Source: Propionibacterium ruminifibrarum (GTDB lineage Bacteria > Actinomycetota > Actinomycetes > Propionibacteriales > Propionibacteriaceae). From it: 32,000 nt of DNA. The stretch spans positions 60,001 through 92,000 of the forward strand of contig NZ_OMOH01000006.1 of the NCBI RefSeq assembly GCF_900289195.1, given 5' to 3'. The notes below the pieces were generated by a model. It was not told the origin of the DNA, ran no database searches, and saw only the letters and a program-made list of their open reading frames with translations. Below are positions 7,080 through 31,400 of the stretch, piece by piece; within the stretch, counting starts at the first letter, position 1; each line of letters starts with the position of its first letter. The position numbers and the translations under genes are program-made.

Positions 7080-8270
<1,191 letters not shown>

Positions 8271-8428: not shown

Positions 8429-8457
8429 ATTTTGGTCCTTCCCCGCGGCATAGTCAA
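8429..8457 (-). promoter_or_regulatory. candidate tuf-proximal promoter (-35 TTGACT, 17 nt spacer, -10 CAAAAT)
   Basis: The minus strand reads TTGACT (8457-8452), a 17-nt spacer, then CAAAAT (8434-8429). This sits just downstream of the post-fusA hairpin and about 160 nt upstream of the tuf start. Called from sequence pattern only. Confidence 0.3.
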
Positions 8458-8476
8458 ACGCCCCGGGAGGGACCGG

Positions 8477-8506
8477 GTCCGCCCGCCGCACGCGCGGCGG
8501 GCGGAC
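8477..8506 (-). terminator. GC-rich stem-loop between fusA and tuf (partial terminator or processing site)
   Basis: Perfect 13-bp inverted repeat: GTCCGCCCGCCGC (8477-8489), 4-nt loop, GCGGCGGGCGGAC (8494-8506). It lies 12 nt after the fusA stop and has no U-tract. Confidence 0.45.
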
Positions 8507-8518
8507 GTGGTGGTCGGT

Positions 8519-10621
<2,103 letters not shown>

Positions 10622-10714
10622 TGGATCAAACCTCTATTTCTTGGTCTTGGTTGAACGATCCGCCCCGGAGCAGGGCGGCGCCCCCGCCACTGCGAGCGGG
10701 GGCCTTTGCTGCGA

Positions 10715-11185
10715 TTACCAGCGGTAATGGGCGAAGGCCCGGTTGGCCTCCGCCATGCGGTGGGTGTCCTCGCGCCTCTTGACCGAGGCGCCCAGGCCAT
10801 TGCTGGCGTCCAGGATCTCGTTCATGAGACGCTCGGCCATGGTCTTCTCGCGACGCGCGCGGGCGAAGCTCACGAGCCAGCGCATGGCCAGCGTGTTCGA
10901 CCGCGCGGGCTTGACCTCGACGGGCACCTGATAGGTGGCGCCGCCAACCCGGCGGGAGCGGACCTCGACCGAGGGCTTGACGTTGTCAAGGGCCTTCTTG
11001 AGGGTCTGCACCGGGTCGACGCCGGTCTTCTCACGGGTGCCCTCGAGGGCGGTGTAGACGATGCGCTGGGCGGTGGTCTTCTTGCCGTCGAGCAGGATCT
11101 TGCTCACGAGCTGGGAGACCAGCGGGGAGCTGTACACCGGGTCGATGATGACGGGGCGCTTGGGCGCGGGTCCCTTGCGAGGCAT
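10715..11185 (-). CDS. rpsG: 30S ribosomal protein S7
   Basis: The last 156 codons of ORF 10715-11704 read [20 protein letters not shown]...[13 protein letters not shown]. The ATG at 11185 overlaps the rpsL stop (TAATG). Confidence 0.97.
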
Positions 11186-11556
11186 TACTTCTCCTTCTTC
11201 GCGCCGTAGCGGCTGCGGGCCTGCTTGCGGCCCTTGACACCCTGGGTGTCGAGGGCGCCGCGGATGATCTTGTAACGGACGCCAGGCAGATCCTTCACGC
11301 GGCCGCCGCGCACGAGCACCATCGAGTGCTCCTGCAGGTTGTGGCCGATGCCGGGAATGTAGGCGGTGACCTCGACTCCGGAGCTGAGACGGACGCGGGC
11401 GACCTTGCGAAGCGCCGAGTTCGGCTTCTTCGGGGTCGTCGTGTAGACACGCGTGCACACGCCACGGCGCTGGGGCGATCCCTTGAGCGCCGGCGTCTTG
11501 GCCTTGCTGACCTTGTCGGTGCGGCCCTTTCGGACCAGCTGCTGAATAGTGGGCAC
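11185..11556 (-). CDS. rpsL: 30S ribosomal protein S12
   Basis: 123 aa, [11 protein letters not shown]...[19 protein letters not shown]...[16 protein letters not shown] start at 11556. Confidence 0.97.
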
Positions 11557-11912: not shown

Positions 11913-12860
11913 ATGAACAACATGGCCTCCACGACAGCACCAGAACCGGCCGTCCGGATCAGCGGCCTGACCAAGTCGTTCGGCCCGCTCGTCGCGGTCG
12001 ACCGGCTCGACCTCACCGTCGCCAGGGGCGAGGTGGTCGCCTTTCTCGGCCCCAACGGTGCCGGCAAGTCCACCACCCTCGACGTCGTCCTCGGGTTCTC
12101 CCGGGCCGACGCCGGCACCGTCACCGTGCTGGGCGACGCACCGGCCCGGGCCGTCCGCGACGGGCGGGTCGGCGCCGTCCTCCAGGCCGGCGGCCTGCTG
12201 CCCGACCTCACCGTGCGCCAGACCCTCGACGTGGTCGCCTCCCTGCAGTGCAGTACCCCCGACGTCGAGGCCGTCATCGCCCAGACCCGCCTGTCGGGCC
12301 TGCTGCGCCGCAAGGTGGGCAAGTGCTCCGGCGGGGAGGTCCAGCGCATCCGTCTCGCGCTGGCCCTGCTGCCCCGCCCCGAGTTGCTCGTCCTCGACGA
12401 ACCCACCACTGGCATGGACGTCACCGCCCGCGCCGACTTCTGGGAGACCATGCGCGAGGCCACGGCGCAGGGCCGGGCCATCCTGTTCGCGACCCACTAC
12501 CTGACCGAGGCCGCCGACTTCGCCGATCGCATCGTCATCATCGACCGCGGCCGGCTCGTCGCCGACGGCTCGGTTGACGAGATCCGGGCGCTCGGCGAGG
12601 GCACCACCGTCACCGCGAGCTGGCCGGGGCTGAGCGGCGAGCCCGAGCTGCGCGAGGCGCTCGCCCCCGTGGCCGGCTCCCTGCTCACGGTGAGCGTCCA
12701 CGGCGAGCACGTGGAGCTGCGGACCACCGCCGCCGACGACGTGGCCCGGCTCCTGCTCACCGCGACCCCGGCCGTGCACCTGGGCATCAGCGCGCTGAGC
12801 CTCGACGACGTCTTCACCGAGCTCGTCGCCCAGGAGCCCGACGCCGCACCGGCCCCCTGA
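11913..12860 (+). CDS. ABC transporter ATP-binding protein (ABC-2/DrrA-type exporter ATPase)
   Basis: Walker A GPNGAGKST, signature CSGGEVQR, Walker B LLVLDEPTTGMD. The C-terminal extension is typical of DrrA-like ATPases. Confidence 0.9.
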   Translation: MNNMASTTAPEPAVRISGLTKSFGPLVAVDRLDLTVARGEVVAFLGPNGAGKSTTLDVVLGFSRADAGTVTVLGDAPARAVRDGRVGAVLQAGGLLPDLTVRQTLDVVASLQCSTPDVEAVIAQTRLSGLLRRKVGKCSGGEVQRIRLALALLPRPELLVLDEPTTGMDVTARADFWETMREATAQGRAILFATHYLTEAADFADRIVIIDRGRLVADGSVDEIRALGEGTTVTASWPGLSGEPELREALAPVAGSLLTVSVHGEHVELRTTAADDVARLLLTATPAVHLGISALSLDDVFTELVAQEPDAAPAP

Positions 12861-12954
12861 GCGGCGCTCCGCGCCGCAGACCAGTACCGCGGCCCGGCCG
12901 CCCACCACGGAGCGGCCCGGCCCGCCAGAAGAACTCACGAAGGATTCATCGACC

Positions 12955-13749
12955 ATGACGACACTCACCACGACCAGCGGGCGGCCCCGGCTGGGCACCT
13001 ACACGCGGATCGACGCGCTGACCACCCTGAAGCGGGCCGACATGATCGTCTTCACCCTGCTACTGCCGTTGGGCATGTACCTGTTCTGGGGCGCCATGCA
13101 GGACTACTCCGGCCTGGACGTCGGACGCGGCAACATCGCCGCCTCGACCATGGTCAACATGGCGGTCTTCTCCGTCGCGGTCGCGGCGACCTGCACGGCG
13201 GCCGGCGCCGCGGTGGAGCTGGCCGGCGGCTGGGGCCGCCAGATGGCCCTCACCCCGGCCGGCACCCGCGGCTACGTCCTCGTCAAGCTGCTCTGCGCCG
13301 TCATCGTCTCGGCCGCGCCCGTCACGATCATCTTCATCGCGGGGCTGTTCACCGGCGCCGAGATGGACGCCTTCTGGGTGTGGGCCGCGAGCTATCTACT
13401 CGCGCTGGCGCCGACGGCCCTGCTCTTCGGCTGCTACGGCCTGGCGGTGGGGCTGTGGTTCCCGGCGCAGGGGGCCGTCGGCATCGCGGGCACCTCGATC
13501 GCCCTGTTCGGCTTCCTCGGCAATCTGTTCATGCCGCTCGACGGCACCCTGTTCGCCCTGGGCCGCTTCACCCCCATCTACGGGGCGGGAGCCCTGGCCA
13601 CCCGGCCCATCCAGGGCGACACCGTCGCCCTGATGAGCGACGTCGTCGACGAGGCGCTGTGGGTGCCGCTCACTAACATGATCGCGTGGACCCTGCTCTT
13701 CGCCCTCGTGGGCCTGGCGGCGCGCCGCCGGACGACCCGGCGCCGGTGA
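12955..13749 (+). CDS. ABC-2 type transporter permease
   Basis: 264 aa with a six-TM hydrophobic profile, located immediately downstream of the ABC-2-type ATPase. The stop overlaps the next start (GTGA). Confidence 0.8.
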   Translation: MTTLTTTSGRPRLGTYTRIDALTTLKRADMIVFTLLLPLGMYLFWGAMQDYSGLDVGRGNIAASTMVNMAVFSVAVAATCTAAGAAVELAGGWGRQMALTPAGTRGYVLVKLLCAVIVSAAPVTIIFIAGLFTGAEMDAFWVWAASYLLALAPTALLFGCYGLAVGLWFPAQGAVGIAGTSIALFGFLGNLFMPLDGTLFALGRFTPIYGAGALATRPIQGDTVALMSDVVDEALWVPLTNMIAWTLLFALVGLAARRRTTRRR

Positions 13750-14903
13750 GCACGATGACCGGGCGTGCGGCGAGTCCGGCCGGTGGGCGGAAGGGATTCT
13801 GGCACCGGGTCAACTGGATGGCGAGCATCTGGGTGGTCTTCCTCCTCATCCCGCTCGTCATACTCGCTCGCTCCACCACGGCCTGGCCGGCCAAGGCCAG
13901 CGGGCTGGTGGGCACCTGCGGGTTCATCGTCGCCTACCTCGTCATGGTGAACTCCTCGTCCGAGACGTTCGCGTGGGAGCGGCTGCCGGCGGGGACCACG
14001 ATGGCCGAACAGCTGCGGGTACCGCTGCGCGCGAGCTGCGTCCTGCTCCCCCTCGTGGCGCTGACCGTGCCGGGCCTGGGCTGGTGGGCGTTCTACTTCC
14101 TGCCGTTCTTCACCGCGCTGCTGCTCTACACGACGCGGCTGGGCACGGGGCTGCTGGCCGTTGCCCTGCTGAACGCGGGGGCGGCGATCTGCGCGGTGCT
14201 GTTCATTCCCGACCCCGAGATGAGGTGGAACGGCGTACTGGGGCCGTGCTTCTCGGTGTTCATCATCGCGCTGTCGCGCATCGGCGTGGACGCCGAGGAG
14301 CGCCGCCAGGTCAAGGAGCGCGAGCTCGCCGCGGCGTCCGAGCGCGAGGAGATCAGCCGGGACGTCCACGACCTGCTGGGCCACTCCCTCACCGTCCTCA
14401 CCCTCAAGGCCGAGGTCGCGCAGCGTCTCGTACGCCGCGACCCCGACGCCGCCGAGCGCGAACTCGGCGAGATCGTCGGGCTGGCCCGCACGGCCCTGGC
14501 GGACGTGCGCGCCACCGTCACCCGGCTGCGCGTACCGGACCTCGCCGGCCAGCTGGAGGCCTCCCGCACGGCCTTCGCCGCCGGCGGCCTCGAGGCGGCC
14601 TTCTCGGGACGGCCCGACGCGGTGCCGGCTCCCCAGCGGGAGCTGCTCGCCTGGGCGCTGCGCGAGGCGACGACGAATGTGCTGCGCCACGCCGGGGCGC
14701 GCAGCGTGAGCGTCGAACTCGCCCCGGGACTGGTGCGGGTCACCGACGACGGCGCCGGCGCCGCGGGGCACGAGCTGGGCAACGGGCTGCGGGGGCTGTC
14801 CGAACGTGTCCGGGCCGCCGGGGGCACCCTCACGCTGACCAGCCCGGCGCCCGGGGGCGGCACGGGCACCGGCCCGGGAACCCTTCTGGAGGTGAGACTG
14901 TGA
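13746..14903 (+). CDS. sensor histidine kinase, DesK/LiaS-like (HisKA_3), intramembrane-sensing type
   Basis: The N-terminal half is all TM helices with short loops. H-box EREEISRDVHDLLGHSLTVL, and an HATPase region (TTNVLRHAGA, GNGLRGLSERV). Start at GTG 13746 overlapping the permease stop; ATG 13755 is an alternative. Confidence 0.85.
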   Translation: MSTMTGRAASPAGGRKGFWHRVNWMASIWVVFLLIPLVILARSTTAWPAKASGLVGTCGFIVAYLVMVNSSSETFAWERLPAGTTMAEQLRVPLRASCVLLPLVALTVPGLGWWAFYFLPFFTALLLYTTRLGTGLLAVALLNAGAAICAVLFIPDPEMRWNGVLGPCFSVFIIALSRIGVDAEERRQVKERELAAASEREEISRDVHDLLGHSLTVLTLKAEVAQRLVRRDPDAAERELGEIVGLARTALADVRATVTRLRVPDLAGQLEASRTAFAAGGLEAAFSGRPDAVPAPQRELLAWALREATTNVLRHAGARSVSVELAPGLVRVTDDGAGAAGHELGNGLRGLSERVRAAGGTLTLTSPAPGGGTGTGPGTLLEVRL

Positions 14904-15517
14904 ACCCCTCCCCCATCAGGGTGCTCATCGCCGACGACCAGGGGCTCGTCCGCGGGGCGCTCGCCACCCTGCTCGGGCTCGAACCCGACATCGAGGTGGT
15001 CGCCCAGGCCGGCACGGGCCAGGAGGCGATCGACGCGGTGCGCGCACAGCCGATCGACGTGGCCCTGCTCGACATCGACATGCCGGACATGGACGGGCTC
15101 GCAGCCGCCGCGGCGATCACCGCCCTGGGTCCGGGCTGCCGCAGCCTCATCGTCACGACCTTCGGGCGCCCGGGCTATCTCTCGCGGGCCCTCGAGGCTG
15201 GGGCGAGCGGCTTCCTCGTCAAGGACACCCCGCCGGCCGAACTGGCCGAGGCGATTCGAAAGATCGCCCGGGGCCTGCGCGTCATCGACCCGACGCTGGC
15301 CCAGGAGTCGGTGCTGCTGGGGCCGAACCCGCTGACCGAGCGCGAGAAGGACGTCCTGCGGCTGGCGGCCGAGGGGGCCGACGCGCAGGGCATCGCCGGG
15401 ACGCTGGCGCTCGGCGAGGGCACGGTGCGCAACTACCTGTCGAGCGCCATCGCCAAGACGCACGCCCGCAACCGCACCGAGGCGGCCCGGACGGCGGAGC
15501 GGAACGGCTGGCTGTAG
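14900..15517 (+). CDS. response regulator, NarL/LuxR family
   Basis: The last 205 codons of ORF 13973-15517 read VNPSPIRVLIADDQGLVRGAL...DVALLDIDMPDMDG (receiver domain), followed by LTEREKDVLRLAAEGADAQGIAGTLALGEGTVRNYLSSAIAK (LuxR-type HTH). The GTG start overlaps the kinase stop (GTGA). Confidence 0.9.
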   Translation: MNPSPIRVLIADDQGLVRGALATLLGLEPDIEVVAQAGTGQEAIDAVRAQPIDVALLDIDMPDMDGLAAAAAITALGPGCRSLIVTTFGRPGYLSRALEAGASGFLVKDTPPAELAEAIRKIARGLRVIDPTLAQESVLLGPNPLTEREKDVLRLAAEGADAQGIAGTLALGEGTVRNYLSSAIAKTHARNRTEAARTAERNGWL

Positions 15518-15550
15518 TGAAACGGCCTCGGGGCGCCGCTGCGGGGACGA

Positions 15551-16462
15551 TCAGCCGGCCTCGACGGGCAGCCAGGGCAGGCCGGGGCTCGTCCGGGCGT
15601 CCTCGTCGGTGACCGTCAGGTATTCGACGCCGTCGAGCAGCCCGGGCAGTCGCCCGGCGGGACGCATCATGAGGGCCGTCGCCGCGACCTCGGCCCGCAT
15701 CCCGTCGGCGCACACCGCGCTGGCCTGGCGCACCCCGGAATCCGACGGCCGCCCGGTGGCCGGGTCGACGACGTGGTGCACGACCTGCCCGTCGACCAGG
15801 CGCGGCAGCTGCTGCAGGTAGTCCCCTGAGGTGGCCAGGTCGGCGCCATCGGCCAGCTCGACGGAGCCGAGGATGGCGTCACCGGCCACGGTGTTCACCC
15901 CGACCCGCCAGGGCAGTCCGTCCGGCCTGGTGCCGGCAGCCGCGATCGACGAGGCCCCGACCGAGACGAGAGCGGATTCGACCCCCCGGTCGAGACAGAG
16001 CCCGCGGACGGCGTCGGCGACGAATCCCTTCGCGATGGCCCCCAGGTCGAGCCGTGCCCCGCCGTGCAGGCGGTAGGCGCGTTCGTCCACCTTCTCGAGC
16101 AGTTCGGGCGCGCAACGCCGCCTCGCCGCCTCGATCGCCTCCCGGCCGGGTGGGCGCACGGGCCGGCCGGACGCGAGGGCGGCCAGCCAGTCCTTGACGT
16201 TCCACATCCGGCTGAGTGCGCCGATGCAGGGCGTGAAGGCCCCGTCGCTGAGTGCGGCGAGCGTCAGGGCGGCGTCGAGCACCGCGGCCGTCGGGGCGGC
16301 GACCTCGACGACGGTCCCGCCGGAGCGGTTGAGCGCGGACACGTCCGAGTCCGGCTGGAAGCGCGACAGCAGCGACTCGTGGCGGATCAGCAGGTCGGCG
16401 GTCTCCTCGACCAGGTCACCCAGCCGCCCCGTCACGACGGTCACCTCGACGATGGTCGCCAT
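15551..16462 (-). CDS. apbE: ApbE-family FAD:protein FMN transferase (N-terminus uncertain, no signal peptide visible)
   Basis: The last 303 codons of ORF 15551-16963 carry ApbE-like motifs: AMATIVEV (in place of the usual MGT), SRFQPDSDVSALN, LDLGAIAKGF, LVSVGASSIAA, ATSGDY, HHVVDPATGRP. The only canonical start downstream of the preceding gene is ATG 16462. The conserved strand RFVLPA lies upstream of that ATG, so a CTG start at 16549 is possible. Confidence 0.78.
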   Translation of the reverse strand: MATIVEVTVVTGRLGDLVEETADLLIRHESLLSRFQPDSDVSALNRSGGTVVEVAAPTAAVLDAALTLAALSDGAFTPCIGALSRMWNVKDWLAALASGRPVRPPGREAIEAARRRCAPELLEKVDERAYRLHGGARLDLGAIAKGFVADAVRGLCLDRGVESALVSVGASSIAAAGTRPDGLPWRVGVNTVAGDAILGSVELADGADLATSGDYLQQLPRLVDGQVVHHVVDPATGRPSDSGVRQASAVCADGMRAEVAATALMMRPAGRLPGLLDGVEYLTVTDEDARTSPGLPWLPVEAG

Positions 16463-16553
16463 CGCGGGCAGGACGAAGCGCTGCGCCCCAGGTGCCGCCC
16501 TGATGCGCGCGGGCCGGCCGCCCGGTCCGGCCGGGCGGTGCGGGACCAGCGGG

Positions 16554-17096
16554 TCAGTAATCCTCGTCCTCCAGACCCAGGCCGGGCATGTTGATCGTGT
16601 CGGCACGTCCGTCGTCCTCGACCCCCTGCGCCTGGTAGACGGCGCGCAGCGAGGCCTGCAGGAACTGGCTGTGCGCCACGGTGGCGCCCGAGATCGTGTC
16701 GACCGCGGTCGGGTCCTGGACCTCGACGAGGCTCGCGGAGTACTGCTCGTAGGAGGCGACGGCGGCCTGGGCGCGCTGGTAGTACTCGGCGTTGGCGATC
16801 TCGCCCGAGCTGTCCTTGCCGTAGTTCTCGTCCTTGACGGTGCCGTCGGACTCGACCGTCTCGTACGTGGCCTCGGTGATCCGGCCGCCCTGGACGGTGA
16901 TGGTGACGGTGCCCACCGAACCCTGGTCGTCCTCGTTGGACTGGCCGGTGTAGGTGCCGTCACTCATCGGAATGCTCATGTCGACGAGTTCGTCGTCGCC
17001 GGCGCAGGCGGTCAGCATCATGGCGCCGACCGCGCCGAGCCCGGCGAAGGCCGCGAAGCGTCGGGTGAGGCTGCGGTTCCGGTTGCTCATGCTCAC
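16554..17096 (-). CDS. FMN-binding domain lipoprotein (predicted flavinylation substrate)
   Basis: Signal MSMSNRNRSLTRRFAAFAGLGAVGAMMLTAC has a twin-arginine motif (TRRF) and a lipobox (LTAC). The FMN_bind-type domain carries the flavinylation motif DTISGAT (16680-16700). Start is GTG 17096 (GTGA overlap with the ATPase stop) or ATG 17090 (GGAG plus a 5-nt spacer). Confidence 0.8.
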   Translation of the reverse strand: MSMSNRNRSLTRRFAAFAGLGAVGAMMLTACAGDDELVDMSIPMSDGTYTGQSNEDDQGSVGTVTITVQGGRITEATYETVESDGTVKDENYGKDSSGEIANAEYYQRAQAAVASYEQYSASLVEVQDPTAVDTISGATVAHSQFLQASLRAVYQAQGVEDDGRADTINMPGLGLEDEDY

Positions 17097-17842
17097 TCCC
17101 CCTGATCCGTACCGCCGGTCATGACCACGTTCGACTGGGCGGGCTCGTCACCGCCGGCACCGGCATCGTCGTGAACGGTCGTCTCGACGATCCTGCCGTG
17201 GTCGAGACGAACCTCGCGCTGGCCCTTCGATGCGACCCAGGCGTCGTGGGTGACGACGATGAGCGTGGTGCCCTCGGCGTGCAGCTGCCCGAAGATGTCG
17301 AGCACGATGCGTTCGTTCTTCTCGTCCAGGTTGCCGGTGGGTTCGTCGGCCAGGACGATCTTCGGCGAGTTGATGAGGGCGCGGGCGACGCACACGCGCT
17401 GCTGCTCGCCGCCGGACAGCTGGCTCGGCAGGTGGGTGGCCCGTTCGGCCAGGCCCACCCGGTCGAGGGCGGCGAGGGCCTCGGTCTCGTCGGGCATCGA
17501 GTGGTAGTACTGGGCGACCATGACGTTCTCGAGGGCCGTCAGGTGCGGGATGAGGTGGAACTGCTGGAAGATCAGGCCGATCGTCTCCCGGCGCACCTGG
17601 GTGAGGTCGAAGCCGGAGAACTTCGAGATGTCCCGGCCGTCGAGCATGACGGTGCCCTCGGTGGGCTGGTCCATGCACCCGATGATGTTCATCATCGTCG
17701 TCTTGCCGGAACCGGACGGGCCGACGATCGAGACCCACTCGCCGCGCCGGACGGTGAGGTCGACGTGGTCGAGGGCGTGCAGGTCGCCGTAGATCTTCGA
17801 GACGTCGGTGAGCCGCAGCAGATCGGACGTGGTGTTGGTCAT
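17093..17842 (-). CDS. ABC transporter ATP-binding protein, MacB/LolD/FtsE-type
   Basis: Walker A GPSGSGKTT, Q-loop FQQFHL, signature LSGGEQQR, Walker B LADEPTGNLD, H-loop VTHD. AGGAA lies 5 nt before the ATG. Confidence 0.92.
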   Translation of the reverse strand: MTNTTSDLLRLTDVSKIYGDLHALDHVDLTVRRGEWVSIVGPSGSGKTTMMNIIGCMDQPTEGTVMLDGRDISKFSGFDLTQVRRETIGLIFQQFHLIPHLTALENVMVAQYYHSMPDETEALAALDRVGLAERATHLPSQLSGGEQQRVCVARALINSPKIVLADEPTGNLDEKNERIVLDIFGQLHAEGTTLIVVTHDAWVASKGQREVRLDHGRIVETTVHDDAGAGGDEPAQSNVVMTGGTDQGE

Positions 17843-17850
17843 GATGGTTC

Positions 17851-19086
17851 CTATTCTCCGCGCAGCACCAGGGCTGGGTCGATGTCGACGGCTCGGCGCA
17901 CCGGGATGAGGCTCGCCAGGGTGGACACGCCGATGGCGGCCACGACCGTGCCGATGAGGATGAGCGCGTGGGCCTCGACGGTGCGGTGGAAGACGTTGAG
18001 CGAGATCACCTGCGCCAGACCGAATCCGGCGATGGCGCCGATGACGCCGCCGATCAGGCCGAGGACGACGCCCTCACCGAGGAACTCCACGATGATCGAC
18101 CGGTCGTCGGCGCCGAGGGCCTTGCGCAGGCCGATCTCGTTGCGACGCTCCGTGACGATGGCCATCATCGTCGTCGAGACACCGATCATGATGAGGGCCA
18201 GCACGATGACCGAGATGATCACCATGAGCGAGCGGAGCATGCCCAGCACGTCCGCGTCGGACTGGGCGAGGCGTGCCACCGGATCGGCGCTCACCTCGGG
18301 GTGGTCGGCGTCGATCCGGTCGGCCAGCTGCTGGAGGGCGTCGCCCTCGACCGAGATCGAGAACTCGGCGACGGTGAAGACCGGTGGCTCGCCGGTCAGC
18401 TCGGTCATGTCTTCCATGGACAGGTAGACGAAGCCGTCCTCGTTGCCGCCGGTCTCCAGGATCCCCGAGACCGTCACCGCGGTCTCGGCGCTCGTGGCCG
18501 CCTCGGCCTGGCTCACGTCCTGGTTCGAGATCTCCTTGCCGTTCTCCCCCGTCGCCCCCGTTCCCGGGGTCTGGCTCCCGCTGTCGCCCGAGTCGTCCTT
18601 GGCGAGCATCGACAGGGTGACCGAGTCGCCCACATGGGCGTCGACGGCCTGCGCGACGTCCTGGCCGATGAGCACCTGGCCGGTGCCGGCGGGCCAGTCG
18701 CCCTCCACGTACCAGTACGGGTTCAGCCGGTGGGCGGCATCGAGATCGGCGCCGGCCGCCACGTACGGCAGGTCGTTGACGAGGACCGACTCGTAGTCGA
18801 TGCCAACCGCTCCGACGAGCCCGTCGGGGCCGACCTCGTCGGCGATCTCCTCGACGACCGAGACGTCGAAACCGGTCGCATCACCGGCCGGTGTCAGCAG
18901 CATGTTGGCGCCGGCGGAACGCATCTCGCGGGCCATCTGTCGCGGCACGTCGACCGAGATCGTGGCCAGCGCCGAGAGTGTGGTGGCGCCCACCGCGACG
19001 GCCAGCATCGCGACGATGACGCGGGAGTGCCGCCGCAGGATCGACGACATGACCATGCGGATGAACAGTCTGCGCTTGGGGTTCAT
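17851..19086 (-). CDS. FtsX/MacB-type ABC permease (second of two)
   Basis: 411 aa: an N-terminal TM helix, a large extracytoplasmic domain of about 250 aa, then three C-terminal TM helices containing the FtsX-type segment ERRNEIGLRKALGA. GGAGG lies 7 nt before the ATG. Confidence 0.85.
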   Translation of the reverse strand: MNPKRRLFIRMVMSSILRRHSRVIVAMLAVAVGATTLSALATISVDVPRQMAREMRSAGANMLLTPAGDATGFDVSVVEEIADEVGPDGLVGAVGIDYESVLVNDLPYVAAGADLDAAHRLNPYWYVEGDWPAGTGQVLIGQDVAQAVDAHVGDSVTLSMLAKDDSGDSGSQTPGTGATGENGKEISNQDVSQAEAATSAETAVTVSGILETGGNEDGFVYLSMEDMTELTGEPPVFTVAEFSISVEGDALQQLADRIDADHPEVSADPVARLAQSDADVLGMLRSLMVIISVIVLALIMIGVSTTMMAIVTERRNEIGLRKALGADDRSIIVEFLGEGVVLGLIGGVIGAIAGFGLAQVISLNVFHRTVEAHALILIGTVVAAIGVSTLASLIPVRRAVDIDPALVLRGE

Positions 19087-19090
19087 CGTG

Positions 19091-20383
19091 TCACCTCCCG
19101 TGCAGCACTTCGGCCGGGCGCAGCCTCAGCAGGAATCTGACGGCCGGAATGGAGCCGGCCAGGACGACGAGCAGGACCAGGGCCGCGACGATGCCGGCGA
19201 CCGAGGGCAGGATCGATATGGCCGAGCCGAACACGAGGTGCCCGATGACCTGGGCCAGGCCGATCCCGACGCCGAACCCGAGCAGGCCCCCCACCAGGCC
19301 GATGATGAGGATCTCGGTGAGGATCAGGCCGACCACCGCCGCGTCGCGGGCCCCGATGGCCTTCATCAGACCGATCTGGGCTGCGCGCTCCATGACGTTG
19401 GCGGTGACCAGGTTGGCGATGGCGAGCGCGGCGCCGGCCATCGACAGGACCGTGACGAGCACCATGAGCAGCTGCGTCTTCTCGAGGATGGTGCCCTCCG
19501 ACTCGGAGACCTGGCGTACCGCACGGGCCGTGGAGTCGGGGATGACCTCCTCGATCTGGTAGGCGATCGAGGAGACGTAGGCGGTGCAGTACCAGGTCTC
19601 GCGCTCGGCCACCGACAGGCTGGCGGGATTCTTCGCGGCCTTCCTGGCCAGGTCGTTGTCCGGCGTGGTGAGGGCCGAGACCTCGACCTCGCCGACCGCG
19701 TCGGGTACGGCGATGAGATCCTGGGTCGCGGCGATGTTGGTGAGCACCTGGTTGTCCACGTCCTCACCCGTGGTGACGATGCCCGACACCGTCATCTGCT
19801 CGGTGACACCGTCCCGGGTGAGCGTGAAGGGGTCGCCGATCCCGAGCCCGTTGTCCTGGGCGAAGGTTACGCCCACCACGGCCTGGTCCGTGGCCTCCTG
19901 GTCGGGCCACGCGCCGTCGATCGTCCACCAGCCGCGCATGTTCACCAGGCCGGTGTCGACCGATTCACCGTCGGCCAGGTCGAGGTGCCGGTTGAACCAG
20001 GTGCCGACGACGGTCACGTCCTCGGTGGTGCCGCCCGCCGTCGACACGTCACCCTGCGCGGTGAGCAGGGGCGCGAAGTCGACGATGTTGTAGGTCCAGA
20101 AGATCGTCTTGATCCTGGGCACGTCCGCCTCGTCCAGGTAGGACTGCTGGATGTCGTCGCCGCCGTCGACGTCGTAGATGTCCTGGACGACCGCGGCCCC
20201 CTGGGGGCGGACGACGATGTTGGCCCCGTAGGCCTTCAGCTCCTGGTTGATCTTGTCGCCCACGGAGAACATGACCGAGAGCATTGAGGTGGCGACCGAG
20301 GCACCGAGGGCCACTGTCGCGATGATCATGAGACGCCGGGAACGCTGCCTGAGCAGTGCCCCGCGCAACATGCGAAGAAACAT
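19091..20383 (-). CDS. FtsX/MacB-type ABC permease (first of two)
   Basis: I place the start at ATG 20383 (MFLRMLRGALLRQRSRRLMII...), preceded by GAGGT. Same architecture as its neighbour: TM1, a large extracytoplasmic domain, then three TM helices with MERAAQIGLMKAIGA. Confidence 0.85.
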   Translation of the reverse strand: MFLRMLRGALLRQRSRRLMIIATVALGASVATSMLSVMFSVGDKINQELKAYGANIVVRPQGAAVVQDIYDVDGGDDIQQSYLDEADVPRIKTIFWTYNIVDFAPLLTAQGDVSTAGGTTEDVTVVGTWFNRHLDLADGESVDTGLVNMRGWWTIDGAWPDQEATDQAVVGVTFAQDNGLGIGDPFTLTRDGVTEQMTVSGIVTTGEDVDNQVLTNIAATQDLIAVPDAVGEVEVSALTTPDNDLARKAAKNPASLSVAERETWYCTAYVSSIAYQIEEVIPDSTARAVRQVSESEGTILEKTQLLMVLVTVLSMAGAALAIANLVTANVMERAAQIGLMKAIGARDAAVVGLILTEILIIGLVGGLLGFGVGIGLAQVIGHLVFGSAISILPSVAGIVAALVLLVVLAGSIPAVRFLLRLRPAEVLHGR

Positions 20384-20403
20384 GATGACTACCTCGTTCG
20401 GGT

Positions 20404-21726
20404 TCAGGCGAAGACGTCGGCGCTGGATTCCAGGACGTGGATCGGTACGCTCAGCTCGCCATTGGCGATGGTGTAGTCGATCGGGATGGGATTGCATCCG
20501 CCCTTGAAACCGATGGTGGCGATGTTCATGGCCACCCCGCACAGCTTGCAGATGACCTGGCCGTCCTCCTCGTAGTAGCCGCTGGGACCACAGATCTCGC
20601 AGGCGTCGAGGCCGACGCCGAAGGACGTTCCGGCCTTCTGGATCGCGATGAAACGCACCGTGGTGCCCGCGGACGTCTGGTACTCGAAACGGTGCAGGTG
20701 CGCATCGCTGATCGCGTCGAGGCCGACCACGACGTTGTCGCCCTTGACGTCGAAGGGCTCGGGGGCCGACAGCTCGACCTCCTGTGTCGCATAGCGCTCA
20801 CCGATGGTCAGGACACCGGCTGTGGCAGCCAGGGCGCCGAGGCTGAGGACCGAACGACGACTCATCGAGCGGACGCCGGCCCTCTTCAGCCGCTGCTCGG
20901 ACGCCGCGTCCGCCCCGGTGGGCGTGCGGCGCGCCTGGACCAGCAGGATCATGGCGGCGACGGCTGTGGCGGCCATGGCGACGAAGGAGAACAGGTTGAG
21001 GTGATTGACCAGCCAGGACATCGCCGTGGCGGTCTGTTTCGAGACGCGGATGACCCGCAGGGAGTACAGCAGCCGGATGATGAGGAAGACGTGGGTCGCG
21101 GTGAGGACCAGACCGGTGATGGTGAACAGGACCGGGGCGTAGAACGGGCGCCGCGTGCACATCATCGAGACGCTCGCCCCGGCGACGACCGCGAGTCCGA
21201 CACCGGTCAGGAAACCCAGCGCGTTGAGGAAGGTGGTGCTGGAGAACAGCGTCGAACTGGACGGCACCCACTCCCAGATCTGGAGGTAGACGCTCTGGCT
21301 GGCCCGGAAGACGACGGCCAGGGCCCAGAGGAAACCGGCGGCCGAGGCCACGACGCGCCACGGCGCGGGGATCGGGTTCGCGACGCCGGCGCTGGCCAGC
21401 GAGTTGCCCTGCGCCCCGCGCAGGAGCCCCAGGGTCCGCCGACCGAGGAACCAGACGAGGGCCAGGAGCACCACGAAGAGCCCGACGGTGGGTTCGAGGG
21501 TGGTGAGGGTGAGCCGCTGACGGTCGAAACGGATGATCGAGAACTGGTGGACGATGATGAACGCCAAACCGATGACCGCACCGGTCAGCGCACCCCAGAC
21601 CACCGGGCGGGGGCCCGGACGAGCCGGGTCCCCGCCGCAGGCCAGGCGCACACTGGGAGCCAGCGCTCCGATCGTCAGGGCGACGAGGATGAGCGAACCG
21701 AGCGCGTCAACGAGCTGTGCGAGCAC
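20404..21726 (-). CDS. polytopic membrane protein with C-terminal Cys-rich DUF2318-type domain (Cj1660-like)
   Basis: 440 aa with about 8 predicted TM helices. After a strongly basic loop and a last TM helix (SRRSVLSLGALAATAGVLTIG) comes a soluble domain of about 130 aa with CEICGPSGYYEEDGQVICKLCG...GGCNP (Cys 376, 379, 393, 396, 411; 20494-20601). GTG start preceded by GGGAGAG. Confidence 0.75.
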   Translation of the reverse strand: MLAQLVDALGSLILVALTIGALAPSVRLACGGDPARPGPRPVVWGALTGAVIGLAFIIVHQFSIIRFDRQRLTLTTLEPTVGLFVVLLALVWFLGRRTLGLLRGAQGNSLASAGVANPIPAPWRVVASAAGFLWALAVVFRASQSVYLQIWEWVPSSSTLFSSTTFLNALGFLTGVGLAVVAGASVSMMCTRRPFYAPVLFTITGLVLTATHVFLIIRLLYSLRVIRVSKQTATAMSWLVNHLNLFSFVAMAATAVAAMILLVQARRTPTGADAASEQRLKRAGVRSMSRRSVLSLGALAATAGVLTIGERYATQEVELSAPEPFDVKGDNVVVGLDAISDAHLHRFEYQTSAGTTVRFIAIQKAGTSFGVGLDACEICGPSGYYEEDGQVICKLCGVAMNIATIGFKGGCNPIPIDYTIANGELSVPIHVLESSADVFA

Positions 21727-21748
21727 TGTCTCTCCCGAATGACTGAGG

Positions 21749-21762
21749 TTTGGTATACCAAA
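21749..21762. promoter_or_regulatory. perfect 14-bp AT-rich palindrome TTTGGTATACCAAA in the P19/DUF2318 intergenic gap
   Basis: Read directly from the sequence. It lies 23 nt upstream of the DUF2318-gene GTG and is the most AT-rich patch of the cluster. Function unknown. Confidence 0.25.
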
Positions 21763-21809
21763 GCTCGATCATAGGCACCGGATCAGCTGATCGGTAGCCG
21801 AGGGGCCGG

Positions 21810-22448
21810 TCACCACCACACGGCCTCGGGGTCCCAGTGCCAGTCGGGGAAGGTCGCGACGATCGGTTCGGTCCAGAAGCGCCCCTCGACGCCGGTCTCG
21901 TCGTCGGTGTGCAGCATCCAGCCGTTCTCCTCCGGGGAGTGGATGGTGATCTCGAGCGTGTAGTCGCCGGCGGCCAGCTCGGGCAGGTTGAGGCCGTAGT
22001 GCGGGCCGTCCGAGGCGTTCATGGTCATGAAGGTGCCGCTCTGCACCTCGTTGTCGGAGGCGTCCTTGATGGCGTACTCGACGGTCAGGCCGGGGACGAA
22101 GTCGCCGGCGCCGTAGCCGAGCTGGTTGTCCTCGACGGCCGTGATGTCGGCCTCGAGGTGCATGGCGGCCTGGGAGGCGTCGACACCCATCTTCGGGGTC
22201 ATCTCGACGGGCTGGAAGTAGACCGCTGCGATCTTGAGGGGGCCGGAGAAGACCTCATCGCCGACGGGTTCCTCCTGGAAACCGGCGTCGCCACTGTCAT
22301 CGGCGGTCTCGGCGGCCGAGGCATCGGCGGTGCTCGTGTCGGCCGCCGAACTGGAGTCGGAACTCGAACTGCCGGAGCAGCCGGTCATGAAGCCGGCCAG
22401 CGCCAGTGCGGCGATGAGGCTTCCTACCTTCTTGAATGACATGGACAT
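21810..22448 (-). CDS. P19/Tp34-type periplasmic iron-transport lipoprotein
   Basis: Start at ATG 22448 (AGGAGA plus a 6-nt spacer). Sec-type lipoprotein signal MSMSFKKVGSLIAALALAGFMTGC, then a Ser/Asp/Ala-rich linker. The domain matches C. jejuni P19 as I recall it: IAAVYFQPVEM, HLEADITAVE, GYGAGDFVP, GTFMTMNASDGPHYG, HTDDETGV. Confidence 0.88.
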   Translation of the reverse strand: MSMSFKKVGSLIAALALAGFMTGCSGSSSSDSSSAADTSTADASAAETADDSGDAGFQEEPVGDEVFSGPLKIAAVYFQPVEMTPKMGVDASQAAMHLEADITAVEDNQLGYGAGDFVPGLTVEYAIKDASDNEVQSGTFMTMNASDGPHYGLNLPELAAGDYTLEITIHSPEENGWMLHTDDETGVEGRFWTEPIVATFPDWHWDPEAVWW

Positions 22449-22479
22449 GAAATGTCTCCTGTGTAGAGAGGATTCGGTG

Positions 22480-24144
22480 CTATTCAGTTGTCTGACCCGC
22501 TGTCCGCTCGCCCCGGTCACCGGGCGCCCCGCCGCGACGGCGTTGACGCCGGGATCCGATGACGTAGAGAGCAACGATGATGACGAGAACCACGGCCTGG
22601 CCGGTCAGGTTCTCAACCCGCGGGTAGATCCCCAGCAGGTCGATCGTGGGCAGCCCGTCGATCGCCGTCGACGGCAGGACGTCGGCCTCCTGCAGCTCCT
22701 TGATGCCGGAGCCGGTGAAGACGACGGCCATGGCCGCCAGGAAGATCGACGTGATGATGAAGAAGGGCCGCAGCGGGATGCGCAGGCTGAAGAACCGGAT
22801 CGCCACGTAGACGAGGACGAGGCAGACCGCACCGACGGCCAGGCCGAGCCACACGAGGTGGGTGTCGTCGCCCGCCATCGCCAGGATCGGCTGGTAGAAG
22901 AGGATCGTCTCGGCGCCCTCGCGCAGCACGGCGACGAAGGTGACCAGCACGAGGGAGAACAGTGAGGCGCGGCTGATGCCGTTCTCGGTCGACCCCGGCA
23001 GGTACTTCTTCCACGAGGCGTGGTCGGAGTTCTCGATCATCCAGTTCGACACCCAGATGAGCATGGCCACGGCGACCAGCGCCGTGACGCCCTCGAGCAG
23101 TTCCTGGTTGGAGCCGGCCGCCGCGGTCACGAAGTGGAACAGGAGCGCCAGGGCGCCCGAGATGAGCACGGCGAGGGCCACGCCCGCCCAGATGGCGCGC
23201 GACTCGCGCCGCAGGCCGGCCTTGATCATGAAGGCCATCACGGCGGCGACCACGAGGATGGCCTCCAGGCCCTCGCGCAGGATCACGAGGAAGGCGGAGA
23301 GGAACAGGGTGAGGCCGCCCCCCTCGCTCGTCGCCCCGGTGCTCGGGTCGTACCCGTCGAGCGTGTTGGCGTCCTGGATGAGCATGACCTCGAGCTCGGC
23401 GACTCGCGTCGCGACCGAGTCGTTGTCCTGGTCCGTCATGTCCCGTTTGATGTTGGCGAACTCCAGCTCGATGGTGGACACGCGGGCGCCGGAGACGCGA
23501 CTCATGGTGACCTTCTCGAAACCGGTCGTCTCGTAGTTCCCGTAGTAGGCCTCGTTGACGAGTTCCTTGCCCCGGTCCGGGTCGCCGGCCGCCGAGGCGT
23601 CCCTGCCCTGATTGAGCAGGTCGATCATGGTCGAGGCGACCTGACCCCACTTGCCGGGACTGATCGGCATGTCCTCGGCCCGTTGGGAGTTGCCGTCGAG
23701 GGTCTGCGCCGCATCCGTCACGAGTCTCTTGAGCTCGTCGACCCTGCTGTCGACCTCGGTGCCGTTGTTGTCCTTGATCGCCTGGATGAGCAGGGCGAAG
23801 TCCATGTCGGCGTCCTTGACGTCGGCGCCCGACTTCGCCCCGAGCGCCTCCTCGAAGCCAGAGCCCACGTACGTCTTGTAGCGGGTGTCCCTGACCTGGT
23901 TCTTCGCGCCGTCCTGGTCGCCGTCGTGGAAGGTGGCGGCCGCCGCATCGAGCTCGTCACTGATCTGCTGGGCCACTGTCGTCCACTGCCCCGCGGGTTC
24001 GGCGACGGCCGTCGCCGGACGGCTGAGCGGCAGCAGCACCGCGAGGAGCAGGATCACGCCGATGGCGACGGGCAGGCGGTGCAGGCCGGCCGGCCTGTCC
24101 ACCATCGCTGTCAGCTGCGCGGAATGCACTGGCGAACACCCCAT
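22480..24144 (-). CDS. FTR1-family high-affinity iron permease with a long N-terminal extracytoplasmic domain
   Basis: Two RExxE motifs in TM helices: REGLE (23263-23277) and REGAE (22909-22923). An N-terminal signal or anchor (LPVAIGVILLLAVLLPL) is followed by a helical domain of about 220 aa made of two homologous halves. The start is ambiguous between ATG 24144 and ATG 24105. Confidence 0.88.
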   Translation of the reverse strand: MGCSPVHSAQLTAMVDRPAGLHRLPVAIGVILLLAVLLPLSRPATAVAEPAGQWTTVAQQISDELDAAAATFHDGDQDGAKNQVRDTRYKTYVGSGFEEALGAKSGADVKDADMDFALLIQAIKDNNGTEVDSRVDELKRLVTDAAQTLDGNSQRAEDMPISPGKWGQVASTMIDLLNQGRDASAAGDPDRGKELVNEAYYGNYETTGFEKVTMSRVSGARVSTIELEFANIKRDMTDQDNDSVATRVAELEVMLIQDANTLDGYDPSTGATSEGGGLTLFLSAFLVILREGLEAILVVAAVMAFMIKAGLRRESRAIWAGVALAVLISGALALLFHFVTAAAGSNQELLEGVTALVAVAMLIWVSNWMIENSDHASWKKYLPGSTENGISRASLFSLVLVTFVAVLREGAETILFYQPILAMAGDDTHLVWLGLAVGAVCLVLVYVAIRFFSLRIPLRPFFIITSIFLAAMAVVFTGSGIKELQEADVLPSTAIDGLPTIDLLGIYPRVENLTGQAVVLVIIVALYVIGSRRQRRRGGAPGDRGERTAGQTTE

Positions 24145-24195
24145 TCCTCGAGAAGGACTCGGTTCTTCACAGGTCCTCGACAGAACCCACAGGGA

Positions 24196-24211
24196 GTTAG
24201 CCTAGGCTAAC
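24196..24211. promoter_or_regulatory. perfect 16-bp palindrome GTTAGCCTAGGCTAAC, candidate IdeR/DtxR-type iron box upstream of the FTR1 operon
   Basis: Read directly from the sequence, 52-67 nt upstream of ATG 24144. It contains TAGGCTAAC, identical to the core of the IdeR consensus TTAGGTTAGGCTAACCTAA as I recall it, for about 13/19 overall on either strand. The palindrome also includes a TAnnnT-type hexamer (TAGGCT). Confidence 0.4.
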
Positions 24212-24451: not shown

Positions 24452-28342
<3,891 letters not shown>

Positions 28343-28431
28343 GTTGGTTCTCTTTCCCCTGCCTCCGGCAGGCGGTCAAAACTGTGGATCCAGTGGTCGT
28401 GGGACGGGCCGGAGCCCGACGCCGGAAGGCG

Positions 28432-31400
28432 TCAGGCCTCGGACTCCAGCTTGTACGAGTCGGCGCCGGGCCGGCGGGAGAGGTCGATGCCCAGGTCGTC
28501 GGCGGAGCGGAAGTCGTCCTCCGTGTCGCGCAGGTCGATGACCTGGCCGTCGACGCCGAGGACCTCGACGTTCAGGCACAGCGACTGCATCTCCTTGACG
28601 AGGACCTTGAAGCCCTCGGGGATGCCGGGCTCCGGGATGTTCTCGCCCTTGACGATGGCCTCGTAGACCTTGACGCGGCCGGCGACGTCGTCGGACTTGA
28701 TGGTGAGCATCTCCTGAAGGGCCCAGGCGGCGCCATAGGCCTCGAGGGCCCACACCTCCATCTCGCCGAACCGCTGGCCGCCGAACTGGGCCTTGCCGCC
28801 CAGGGGCTGCTGCGTGATCATCGAGTACGGGCCGGTGGAGCGGGCATGGATCTTGTCGTCGACCAGGTGATGCAGCTTCAGCATGTACATGTACCCGACG
28901 CCCACCTTCTCGGGGAAGGGCTCGCCGGAACGCCCGTCGAAGAGGGTCGCCTTGCCGTCGCTGTCGACGACCATGTCGCCGTCGCGGTTGGGCAGGCCGT
29001 TGGCCAGCAGCCCCGAGATCTCGGCCTCGTTGGCGCCGTCGAACACCGGGGTGGCCAGGCGGGCATTGCCGGCGACGTGCTCGAGTCCGACCTCGCGCAG
29101 CCGCTGGGCCCAGGGATCGTCGCAGTCGCCGATGTCCCAGCCCGAGTGGGCCACCCAGCCGAGGTGCATCTCGAGCACCTGGCCGAGGTTCATGCGGGAG
29201 GGCACGCCGAGCGGGTTCAGGATGATGTCGACCGGGGTGCCATCGGCCATGAAGGGCATGTCCTCGACCGGGAGGATCTTGGAGATGACGCCCTTGTTGC
29301 CGTGCCGGCCGGCGAGCTTGTCACCCACCTGCACCTTGCGCTTCTGCGCGACGTAGACGCGGACCATCTGGTTGACGCCGGGCGGCAACTCGTCGGAGTC
29401 CTCGCGGTCGAAGATGCGCACACCGATGACGGTGCCCTCCTCGCCGTGCGGGACCTTCATCGAGGTGTCGCGGACCTCGCGGGCCTTCTCGCCGAAGATG
29501 GCGCGCAGCAGACGCTCCTCGGGGGTCAGCTCGGTCTCGCCCTTGGGGGTGACCTTGCCGACGAGGATGTCCCCGGTCCGGACCTCGGCGCCGATGCGGA
29601 TGATGCCGCGCTCGTCGAGGTTGGCGACCATGTCGTCGGACACGTTCGGGATGTCGCGGGTGATCTCCTCGGGCCCGAGCTTGGTGTCGCGGGCGTCGAC
29701 CTCGTGCTCCTCGATGTGGATCGAGGTGAGGATGTCCTCGGACACGACCCGTTCGGACAGGATGATGGCGTCCTCGTAATTCAGGCCGTTCCACGGCATG
29801 AAGGCGGCCAGCAGGTTGCGCCCCAGGGCGAGCTCGCCCTGGTCGGTGCAGGGACCGTCGGCCAGGGGCGTGCCCTTCTCGACGTGCTGCCCGGGCACGA
29901 CGACCGGACGCTGGTTGACGCAGGTGCCGGCGTTGGAGCGCTGGAACTTCTCGAGCTTGAACGTCTGGTAGGTGCCGTCGTCGCAGGCGATGTCGATGAG
30001 GTCGCCGGTGACGGAGGTCACCGTGCCGGGCTTTGAGGCGCAGGTGACCTCGCCGACGTCGATGGCCGTGCGGTACTCCATGCCGGTGCCGACGAAGGGG
30101 GCCTCGTTGCGCACCAGCGGAACGGCCTGGCGCTGCATGTTGGCGCCCATGAGGGCCCGGGAGGAGTCGTCGTGCTCGAGGAACGGGATGAGGGCCGAGC
30201 CGACCGACACCATCTGGCGCGGGGAGACGTCCATGTAGTCGACCTCGTCGCGCGGGAGCAGGTCGACCTCGCCGTGGCGCTTGCGCACCAGGACGCGGTC
30301 CTCGACGAAGCGGCCGTCCGCATCGACCCCGGCATTGGCCTGGGCGATGATGTGCCGGTCCTCCTCGTCCGCGGTCAGGTAGTCGACGTCGTCGGTGACC
30401 ACGCCGTCGACGACCTTGCGGTACGGCGTCTCGATGAAGCCGAAGGCGTTGACCCTGGCGAACGAGGCCAGCGAGCCGATGAGGCCGATGTTCGGCCCCT
30501 CAGGGGTCTCGATCGGGCACATCCGGCCGTAGTGGCTCGGGTGGACGTCGCGGACCTCCATGCCGGCGCGGTCGCGGGAGAGGCCGCCGGGGCCGAGGGC
30601 CGACAGGCGGCGCTTGTGCGTCATCTCGGCCAGCGGGTTGTTCTGGTCCATGAACTGCGAGAGCTGGCTGGTGCCGAAGAACTCCTTGAGCGCGGCGGTG
30701 ACCGGGCGCACGTTGATCAGGGTCTGGGGCGTGATGGCCTCGATGTCCTGCGTGGTCATGCGGTCACGCACGACGCGCTCCATCCTGCCCAGGCCGGTGC
30801 GGAGCTGGTTCTGGATGAGCTCGCCCACGGTGCGCAGGCGGCGATTGCCGAAGTGGTCGATGTCGTCCGCCTCGACGAGGAGACCGCCGTCGAGCTCGGT
30901 GCGGCCCTCGTGCAGGGCGCAGATGTAGTGGATCGCGGCCTTGATGTCGTCGATCGTCAGCACCTGCTGGTCGAAGGGCAGGTTCAGGCCGAGCTTCTTG
31001 TTGATCTTGTAGCGGCCCACCTTCGCGGTGTCGTAACGCTTGGGGTTGAAGTAGAAGTTCTCCAGCAGCGTCTGGGCGGCGTCGCGGCTCGGCGGCTCGC
31101 CGGGGCGGAGCTTGCGGTAGATGTCGAGGAGCGCCTCGCCCTGGGTGGTGACGTGGTCCTTCTCCATCGTCATCCGGATGGACTCGTGCTCGCCGAACTC
31201 CTCGAGGATCTGCTCCTCGGTCCAGCCCAGCGCCTTGAGCAGGACGGTGACGTTCTGCTTGCGCTTGCGGTCGAGACGGACGCCGACGGTGTCGCGCTTG
31301 TCGATCTCGAACTCGAGCCACGCACCGCGGGAGGGGATCACCTTGCAGGTGAAGATGTCCTTGTCGCTGGTCTTGTCAGGGGTCTGCTCGAAGTAGACGC

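Follow-up and report, generated by a model that had tools for sequence, protein, structure and literature searches.

A predicted FetMP-FetABCD (P19/FTR1) iron-uptake cluster of Propionibacterium with a putative flavin-carrying lipoprotein and a leaderless ApbE

The question raised by the locus described here is which iron-uptake system it encodes and how an exported flavoprotein within it would acquire its flavin. The locus lies in a stretch of 32,000 nucleotides (nt) of Propionibacterium ruminifibrarum (positions 60,001 to 92,000 of contig NZ_OMOH01000006.1, assembly GCF_900289195.1), which we call the window and whose own positions are used throughout. Its G+C content is ~70%. A run of eight co-directional genes occupies 15551-24144 on the minus strand, with rpoB-rpoC (24452-31950) on one side and rpsL-rpsG-fusA-tuf (7080-11556) on the other, all of them also on the minus strand. 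Among named relatives Propionibacterium australiense comes nearest, with 87% identity in the FetA-like protein. Judged by its sequence, the cluster represents the form that the FetMP-FetABCD (P19/FTR1) iron-uptake system takes in Gram-positive bacteria, and its host is a Propionibacterium near P. australiense. As a whole, we consider it likely that the locus serves Fet-type iron uptake with a flavin relay, in which the flavoprotein would be flavinylated in the cytoplasm and exported by twin-arginine translocation (Tat), and that it is under DtxR/IdeR-type control.

The eight open reading frames (ORFs), their spacing and their motifs had been described in a sequence-only reading of the window; all were recovered on the minus strand where that reading had put them, and its family assignments for the eight proteins were borne out by Pfam and NCBIfam profile searches. 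From FTR1 to ApbE the recomputed intergenic distances are 31/83/20/4/8/-4/91 nt. On a 99%-identical metagenome contig (L081), independent gene calls give identical gaps and layout, except that the start of the FMN_bind gene is called 2 codons later. The first six genes have the same order as Campylobacter jejuni cj1658-1663, as the sequence-only reading had stated; these genes are now called fetMP-fetABCD (PMC10783030).

The first gene (22480-24144) encodes a FetM-type FTR1 iron permease (PF03239, 2e-48; NCBIfam EfeU/Ftr1) with the REXXE motifs REGLE at residues 290-294 (23263-23277) and REGAE at residues 408-412 (22909-22923). The transmembrane (TM) scan gives a signal or anchor helix, an external N-terminal domain of ~240 residues and then 7 TM helices. 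For the external domain (residues ~45-280) no sequence match was found in Pfam, NCBIfam or the PDB, and it is presumably the FetM-type periplasmic domain; a PDB sequence search with the FTR1 protein found no relative either. At a distance of 31 nt follows the gene for the P19/FetP iron-binding lipoprotein (21810-22448; PF10634, Iron_transport, 6e-51), which has the lipobox MTGC with Cys24. Its PDB relatives are 8T7M, Tp34 (2O6C), FetP (3NRP), P19 (3LZL) and FtrA, with E values from 3e-42 to 1e-21.

The third protein (20404-21726) is of the FetA/SifA type (PF10080, FtrD-like/DUF2318, 2e-30) and consists of 8 TM helices and an external C-terminal DUF2318 domain. The domain carries H343-x-H345 and C376xxC379-x13-C393xxC396-x14-C411, and these His and Cys residues are invariant across 25 homologues. 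The Cys spacing is identical to the published DUF2318 motif CxxC-x13-CxxC-x14,15-C (PMC6083913). No YHS domain was matched in FetA at E <= 0.01; this domain is not universal to the FetA family. The AlphaFold2 (AF2) model of FetA has a predicted local distance difference test (pLDDT) score of 81, low in the Cys loop, and a PDB sequence search with FetA gave no relative. Two FtsX/MacB-type permeases follow, FetB-type at 19091-20383 (FtsX 7e-14, MacB_PCD 1e-9) and FetC-type at 17851-19086 (FtsX 2e-19; NCBIfam LolCE/MacB-like; MacB_PCD 4e-5 at 24.3 bits, with a gathering score of 27). According to the TM scan each has four TM helices and a large external domain, of ~265 and ~245 residues, respectively. 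The sixth gene (17093-17842) encodes the FetD-type ATP-binding cassette (ABC) ATPase (ABC_tran 2e-36; best NCBIfam matches MacB, LolD and FtsE), with GPSGSGKT as Walker A and LSGG as signature.

The spread of this arrangement was surveyed through FetA relatives in one genome per species, and gene order was assessed in the 80 best loci. FetA relatives occur in at least 573 species. The order FTR1, P19, FetA, FtsX, FtsX, ABC was found in ~75 of the 80 loci, an FMN_bind lipoprotein comes next in ~60, and ApbE stands after FMN_bind in 31. This repetition in nearly all of the 80 loci shows that the arrangement is not due to chance. DUF2318 genes nearly always adjoin FTR1/P19 in these loci, as also reported in PMC6083913. 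Loci with ApbE belong to Propionibacterium, Schaalia, Pauljensenia, Winkia, Gleimia, one Bifidobacteriaceae metagenome-assembled genome (MAG), one Coriobacteriales MAG and Clostridium minihomine. The clusters of Bifidobacterium, Alloscardovia and Actinomyces gerencseriae end in a divergent FMN_bind subtype without a linked ApbE; this subtype is marked by a Ser/Asp-rich linker and the site V-A-G-A-S, and it shows no BLAST similarity to the flavoprotein of the window. Genes of this kind lie at 15027-15608 in locus L080, 14721-15332 in L077, 14691-15260 in L036 and 14795-15343 in L066. Three of these loci (L080, L077 and L036, from Bifidobacterium/Alloscardovia) have the seven-gene order of the window, and their seventh gene matches PF04205.

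In the window the seventh gene (16554-17096) encodes an FMN_bind lipoprotein, FMN being flavin mononucleotide. Its best NCBIfam match is PplA (6e-11), a flavoprotein that serves Listeria in extracellular electron transfer and reduces ferric iron, and its PDB matches are 2KZX (3e-7) and 3O6U (1e-4). The flavinylation motif DTISGAT occupies residues 133-139, with the codon of Thr139 at 16680-16682, and the GAT sites of both PDB entries align with it; 3O6U is a flavinylated FMN_bind protein (PMC11334425). The pattern D-x-[IV]-[ST]-G-A-T is kept in 56 of 59 cluster flavoprotein homologues. The lipoprotein signal, SLTRRFAAFAGLGAVGAMMLTAC, contains the twin arginine R12R13 (17058-17063), a weakly hydrophobic Ala/Gly-rich h-region and the lipobox LTAC (Cys31). 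The five closest relatives (L001-L005) all share the twin arginine of the window; the P19 proteins of those genomes have short Lys-type general secretory (Sec) signals. The RR n-region, the weak h-region and the lipobox are those of a Tat-exported lipoprotein, which suggests that the flavoprotein is a Tat substrate, as predicted from its signal.

The eighth gene encodes an ApbE FAD:protein FMN transferase (PF02424, 3e-56; FAD, flavin adenine dinucleotide) and may extend over 15551-16606, of which 15551-16462 is the certain core. Its PDB matches have E values from 6e-25 to 2e-18, and the catalytic motifs DLGAIAKG, TSGDY and HHVVDP are intact. The sequence-only reading had counted 91 nt between the FMN_bind and ApbE genes; the number is reproduced, although the stretch is probably coding and not a gap. 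The fold alignment with 3PND begins ~17 residues upstream of ATG 16462, and the upstream sequence RFVLPAMAT corresponds to the conserved F-x-P-A-M-G-T of the ApbE family. None of the codons ATG, GTG and TTG occurs within the 91 nt. Since the fold alignment extends upstream and a canonical start is absent from this stretch, translation probably starts upstream of ATG 16462, either at GTG 16606, which gives a 53-nt overlap with the flavoprotein gene, or at the non-canonical ATC 16504. From any possible start the protein has no signal peptide.

The absence of a leader is common to the ApbE proteins of these clusters. None of the 31 in-cluster ApbEs has an export signal (the loci listed are L001-L031, L050, L062, L070 and the window). 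When the longest possible ORF is considered, the part upstream of the MGT motif is as hydrophobic as a signal peptide in 1 of the 31, and there it is an Ala/Gly low-complexity run. A hydrophobic N-terminal 12-mer is thus present in 1/31 in-cluster ApbEs, compared with 36/53 generic homologues (Fisher p = 2e-9). The control set was made up of these 53 generic ApbE homologues; the search gave four close orthologues and, after them, proteins of <=40% identity. In the 36 controls the N-terminal segments are lipoprotein signals or twin-arginine signals of their own. The leaderless state of ApbEs in P19 clusters seems not to have been noted before.

Since no signal peptide is present on ApbE, the enzyme and the flavoprotein are predicted to be on opposite sides of the membrane: a leaderless enzyme faces a substrate with a signal peptide and a lipobox. 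On these predictions, the mismatch is reconcilable only if modification precedes export. As ApbE has no export signal and the lipoprotein has a twin-arginine signal, we tentatively propose, at somewhat less than an even chance, that the precursor receives its FMN in the cytoplasm from a dedicated, leaderless ApbE and that the holo-protein is then exported, in Propionibacterium by Tat, and lipidated. ApbE is able to modify short peptide tags (PMC12052999), which makes it conceivable, too, that an unfolded precursor is modified ahead of Sec export. The accessible text of the ApbE review (PMC12052999) and of the flavinylation surveys contains no cytoplasmic maturation route for exported ApbE substrates; the review describes leaderless ApbEs with cytoplasmic substrates only, and all characterised FMN_bind lipoproteins in it are modified by exported ApbEs. 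This last point speaks for an alternative that we consider somewhat unlikely, namely that ApbE of the cluster works extracellularly after leaderless or piggy-back export, or that it serves another cytoplasmic target while a second, exported ApbE flavinylates the lipoprotein. Many clusters without their own ApbE would fit it, among them that of Bifidobacterium breve, where apbE is unlinked and was nevertheless found in an iron screen (PMC5449479), as would the Sec-type signal on the flavoprotein of C. minihomine (L050). What decides us against it is that in 31 species a leaderless ApbE is tightly linked to the flavoprotein gene or overlaps it, that ApbE specificity is determined by localisation (Bertsova 2014, cited in PMC12052999), and that the cluster proteins contain no other conserved [ST]GA[ST] site.

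Regarding regulation, a perfect 16-base-pair (bp) palindrome, GTTAGCCTAGGCTAAC, lies at 24196-24211, ~52-67 nt upstream of where the FTR1 ORF starts, as a probable DtxR/IdeR-type operator. It occurs once in the window. Its core, TTAGCCTA(A/G)GCTA, is kept in P. australiense, which has two tandem copies, and in a Propionibacterium MAG, although their upstream regions have otherwise diverged. At the same place other Actinomycetaceae have IdeR-like boxes of the form TTAGGT-N7-ACCTAA, which depart from the IdeR consensus at four positions, all of them central. A DtxR/IdeR-type repressor probably binds 24196-24211 and shuts the operon when iron is plentiful. The folding of the conserved 5' leader between operator and FTR1 is no better than that of shuffled sequences (z = -0.35). 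The scan for sigma-70 promoters found none, the consensus being ill-suited to an actinobacterium of 70% GC, and the single terminator-like site detected falls within a gene. Another perfect AT-rich palindrome of 14 bp, TTTGGTATACCAAA (21749-21762, in the 83-nt P19-FetA gap), was considered as a second operator and rejected, being unconserved in P. australiense and the Propionibacterium MAG.

How might these parts work together? By their sequences, FTR1/FetM is the permease and P19 the external iron-binding lipoprotein, and FetA with the MacB-type FetBCD ABC machine completes the conserved six-gene core. The flavinylated lipoprotein would stand in for the thioredoxins FetE/FetF as an extracytoplasmic redox relay. 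Most likely it would hand electrons to Fe(III) that is chelated or bound to P19, possibly through the Cys/His site of FetA; we favour this delivery because ferric iron is usually reduced by flavins where such cofactors act on it and because PplA is the nearest named relative. Reduction of Fe(III) would release the iron and allow its passage through FTR1. The Cys/His domain of FetA could bind metal or exchange electrons, and FetBCD would provide mechanical, not transport, work. ApbE would attach FMN in the cytoplasm before the holo-lipoprotein is exported by Tat and lipidated, and the repressor at 24196-24211 would turn the operon off under iron plenty. From C. jejuni and B. breve, where all genes of the core are required for growth in low iron and respond to iron limitation by induction, the same would be expected of the window.

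It is important to note that several observations weigh against this scheme. The eight genes of the cluster encode no electron source. FTR1 systems have been classed as "oxidase-dependent", and C. jejuni FetE/F are oxidase-like (PMC10783030). A Foldseek search with the FetA model returned generic transporter bundles only (best E = 0.14) and no recognisable redox-cofactor fold. The match of the flavoprotein to FMN_bind PF04205 scores 21.5 bits, 0.5 below the gathering score of 22. The Tat step is less well supported beyond the Propionibacterium clade: the flavoprotein signals of Schaalia have R-S-R only and those of Winkia have no RR, and in Clostridium minihomine (L050) a leaderless ApbE is combined with a plainly Sec-type lipoprotein signal. 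The palindrome at 24196-24211 matches the canonical 19-bp IdeR box at 13/19 positions.

The oxidase-like character of C. jejuni FetE/F (PMC10783030) also supports the opposite direction of electron flow, in which the flavolipoprotein is a sink or oxidase that takes electrons from Fe(II) at P19/FTR1, or from re-oxidation of the FetA CxxC, and passes them to O2 or quinone. With Fe(II) as donor this would be oxidase-coupled permeation as in Fet3/Ftr1, EfeUOB and FtrABCD. Mutants of B. breve in sif are sensitive to Fe(II) chelators and not to an Fe(III) chelator (PMC5449479), which is consistent with such a flow, and flavin-to-CxxC chemistry is standard in sulfhydryl oxidases. We nevertheless consider it unlikely. 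Oxidised FMN is a poor oxidant of Fe(II), reduced flavins being the usual ferric reductants; PplA, the closest named relative, sends electrons outward; and many of the host taxa are strict anaerobes with no O2 as acceptor.

It is very improbable that two transporters lie side by side, with FTR1/P19 working alone and FetA, the two FtsX permeases, the ATPase and the flavoprotein making up a separate ABC importer for ferrous iron or siderophores that has a ferric reductase of its own, given that the permeases, each with four TM helices and a large external domain, are of the FtsX/MacB type, that the cluster has no substrate-binding protein and that DUF2318 genes nearly always adjoin FTR1/P19. We know of no member of the FtsX/MacB class (MacB, LolCDE, FtsEX) that imports substrates, which tells against such an importer. 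This arrangement was proposed for B. breve, where there are two transcription units and bfe and sif mutants differ in chelator profile (PMC5449479), and the P19-FetA gap of 83 nt in the window and 82 nt in C. jejuni may be cited for it, but C. jejuni fetA-D mutants reproduce the fetP phenotype (PMC10783030).

A few further observations concern the cluster proteins and their surroundings. The [ST]GA[ST] tetrapeptide T269-G-A-T (23329-23340) lies in an external linker of FTR1 and T176-G-A-T (18550-18561) in an external linker of the second FtsX permease. As extra ApbE targets both were rejected; they are conserved in 10 of 75 and 6 of 143 orthologues, respectively, and are probably due to chance. 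On the plus strand, 11913-15517 encodes an ABC ATPase, an ABC-2 permease, a HisKA_3 sensor kinase and a LuxR-type response regulator, which converge on the 3' end of apbE at a distance of 33 nt. The same neighbours are found on contig L081, and these genes have no evident tie to iron. The gene of a VKOR-family (vitamin K epoxide reductase-like) membrane protein (6215-6919, minus strand) adjoins tuf; in actinobacteria this family is the usual substitute for DsbB in extracytoplasmic disulfide formation. At 51-1067 (plus strand) there is a Y-family DNA polymerase-like ORF (IMS, IMS_C, DUF4113) without the first ~80 positions of the IMS catalytic domain profile, perhaps through truncation or a wrongly placed start. 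Rfam (gathering threshold) and tRNA scans over the entire window gave no matches.

The sequence-only reading had put forward the replacement of the thioredoxins by a flavin module and the idea that the flavoprotein supplies reducing power, and knew of the link between FMN_bind/ApbE and P19 clusters from comparative-genomic surveys of flavinylation only. The replacement is real, genes 7 and 8 being an FMN_bind lipoprotein and an ApbE by profile search. It is not new: the same proposal is found near-verbatim in PMC6083913 and again in PMC8238504. Liu 2018 reported that the seventh gene encodes a thioredoxin in most Proteobacteria and an FMN-binding protein in Actinobacteria, Firmicutes, Spirochaetes and Synergistetes, and that either protein could provide extracytoplasmic reducing power for Fe(III) (PMC6083913). 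Meheust 2021 counts 260 P19 clusters with an FMN-binding gene and draws the same parallel to thioredoxins (PMC8238504). Nor does the statement hold that no actinobacterial member had been characterised: bfeUO/sifABCDE of B. breve UCC2003 has been studied genetically (Lanigan 2017, PMC5449479), by means of Tn5 mutants that are sensitive to iron chelators, operon mapping by reverse-transcription PCR and promoter fusions, with induction by dipyridyl, i.e. iron limitation. In C. jejuni, where Richardson-Sanchez 2023 renamed the genes fetMP-fetABCDEF, fetM, P, A, B, C and D are each required in low iron, fetE and fetF are redundant, and FetE resembles a thiol oxidase (PMC10783030). A biochemical study of the P19-cluster flavoprotein itself was not found in the literature.

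For the Fet mechanism the locus brings nothing conceptually new. Fet/P19-FTR1 systems underpin iron acquisition in many pathogens and gut commensals, and the covalent FMN of the flavin variant is a spectroscopic handle that has no counterpart in the thioredoxin variant. If maturation in the cytoplasm is true, it would remove the need for FAD export, FAD being plentiful there, and would make the flavin variant of P19/FTR1 easy to reconstitute. The view that flavinylation of exported FMN_bind proteins always takes place outside the membrane would then have to be revised.

A comparison with known systems places the cluster as follows. Bordetella/Brucella FtrABCD and Escherichia coli EfeUOB resemble it in combining an FTR1-family permease with P19 (FtrA) or another external iron-binding partner and a redox accessory. 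The accessories there are a cupredoxin and a polyferredoxin (FtrB/FtrD) or a dye-decolourising peroxidase (DyP; EfeB), and these systems lack the DUF2318 protein, the MacB-type ABC and the flavoprotein, all three of which are present in the window. ApbE2 of Klebsiella pneumoniae is leaderless and cytoplasmic (Bertsova 2014) and in this respect resembles ApbE of the window; its substrate is a cytoplasmic fumarate reductase, whereas the adjacent substrate in the window is an exported lipoprotein. In Listeria monocytogenes, PplA is an FMN_bind lipoprotein flavinylated by an ApbE-family enzyme, its electrons end on extracellular ferric iron, and it is the best NCBIfam match of our flavoprotein. 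Unlike the latter, PplA has two FMN_bind domains. The Listeria enzyme FmnB is an exported lipoprotein that obtains FAD via an energy-coupling factor (ECF) exporter, and the electron input Ndh2/demethylmenaquinone (DMK)/EetAB is encoded nearby; neither is so in the cluster of the window.

In gene order the cluster also corresponds to FetMP-FetABCDEF of C. jejuni (cj1658-cj1665; CJJ81176_1649-1656). The six core families are in the same order, FTR1 has an external N-domain in both, and the DUF2318 protein has 8 TM helices and the motif CxxC-x13-CxxC-x14/15-C in both; the gap after P19 is 82 nt in C. jejuni and 83 nt in the window. Genes 7 and 8 of C. jejuni encode the thioredoxin-fold FetE/FetF, whereas those of the window encode the FMN_bind lipoprotein and ApbE. 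C. jejuni FetA has a YHS domain and none was detected in FetA of the window. Iron repression in C. jejuni is by Fur, while in the window it would probably act through a DtxR-type box. The host of the former is diderm and that of the latter monoderm.

Among actinobacteria, bfeUO/sifABCDE of B. breve (Bbr_0221-0227) has the same seven-gene architecture and ends in the FMN-binding lipoprotein SifE. Flavoproteins of the Bifidobacterium type carry V-A-G-A-S, with Ser as the site, and that of the window carries I-S-G-A-T. The B. breve cluster is without apbE, which is found at Bbr_1825, whereas apbE of the window is inside the cluster, and the flavoprotein signal of the Bifidobacterium locus L080 has no RR while that of the window does. 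The clusters of Meheust 2021 (PMC8238504) were filtered on predicted signal peptides, and leaderless linked ApbEs are not discussed in the accessible part of its text. These clusters combine P19, FTR1 and an FMN-binding gene, mostly in Gram-positive bacteria, as opposed to thioredoxin-like genes in Gram-negative ones, and they are exactly of the kind found in the window.

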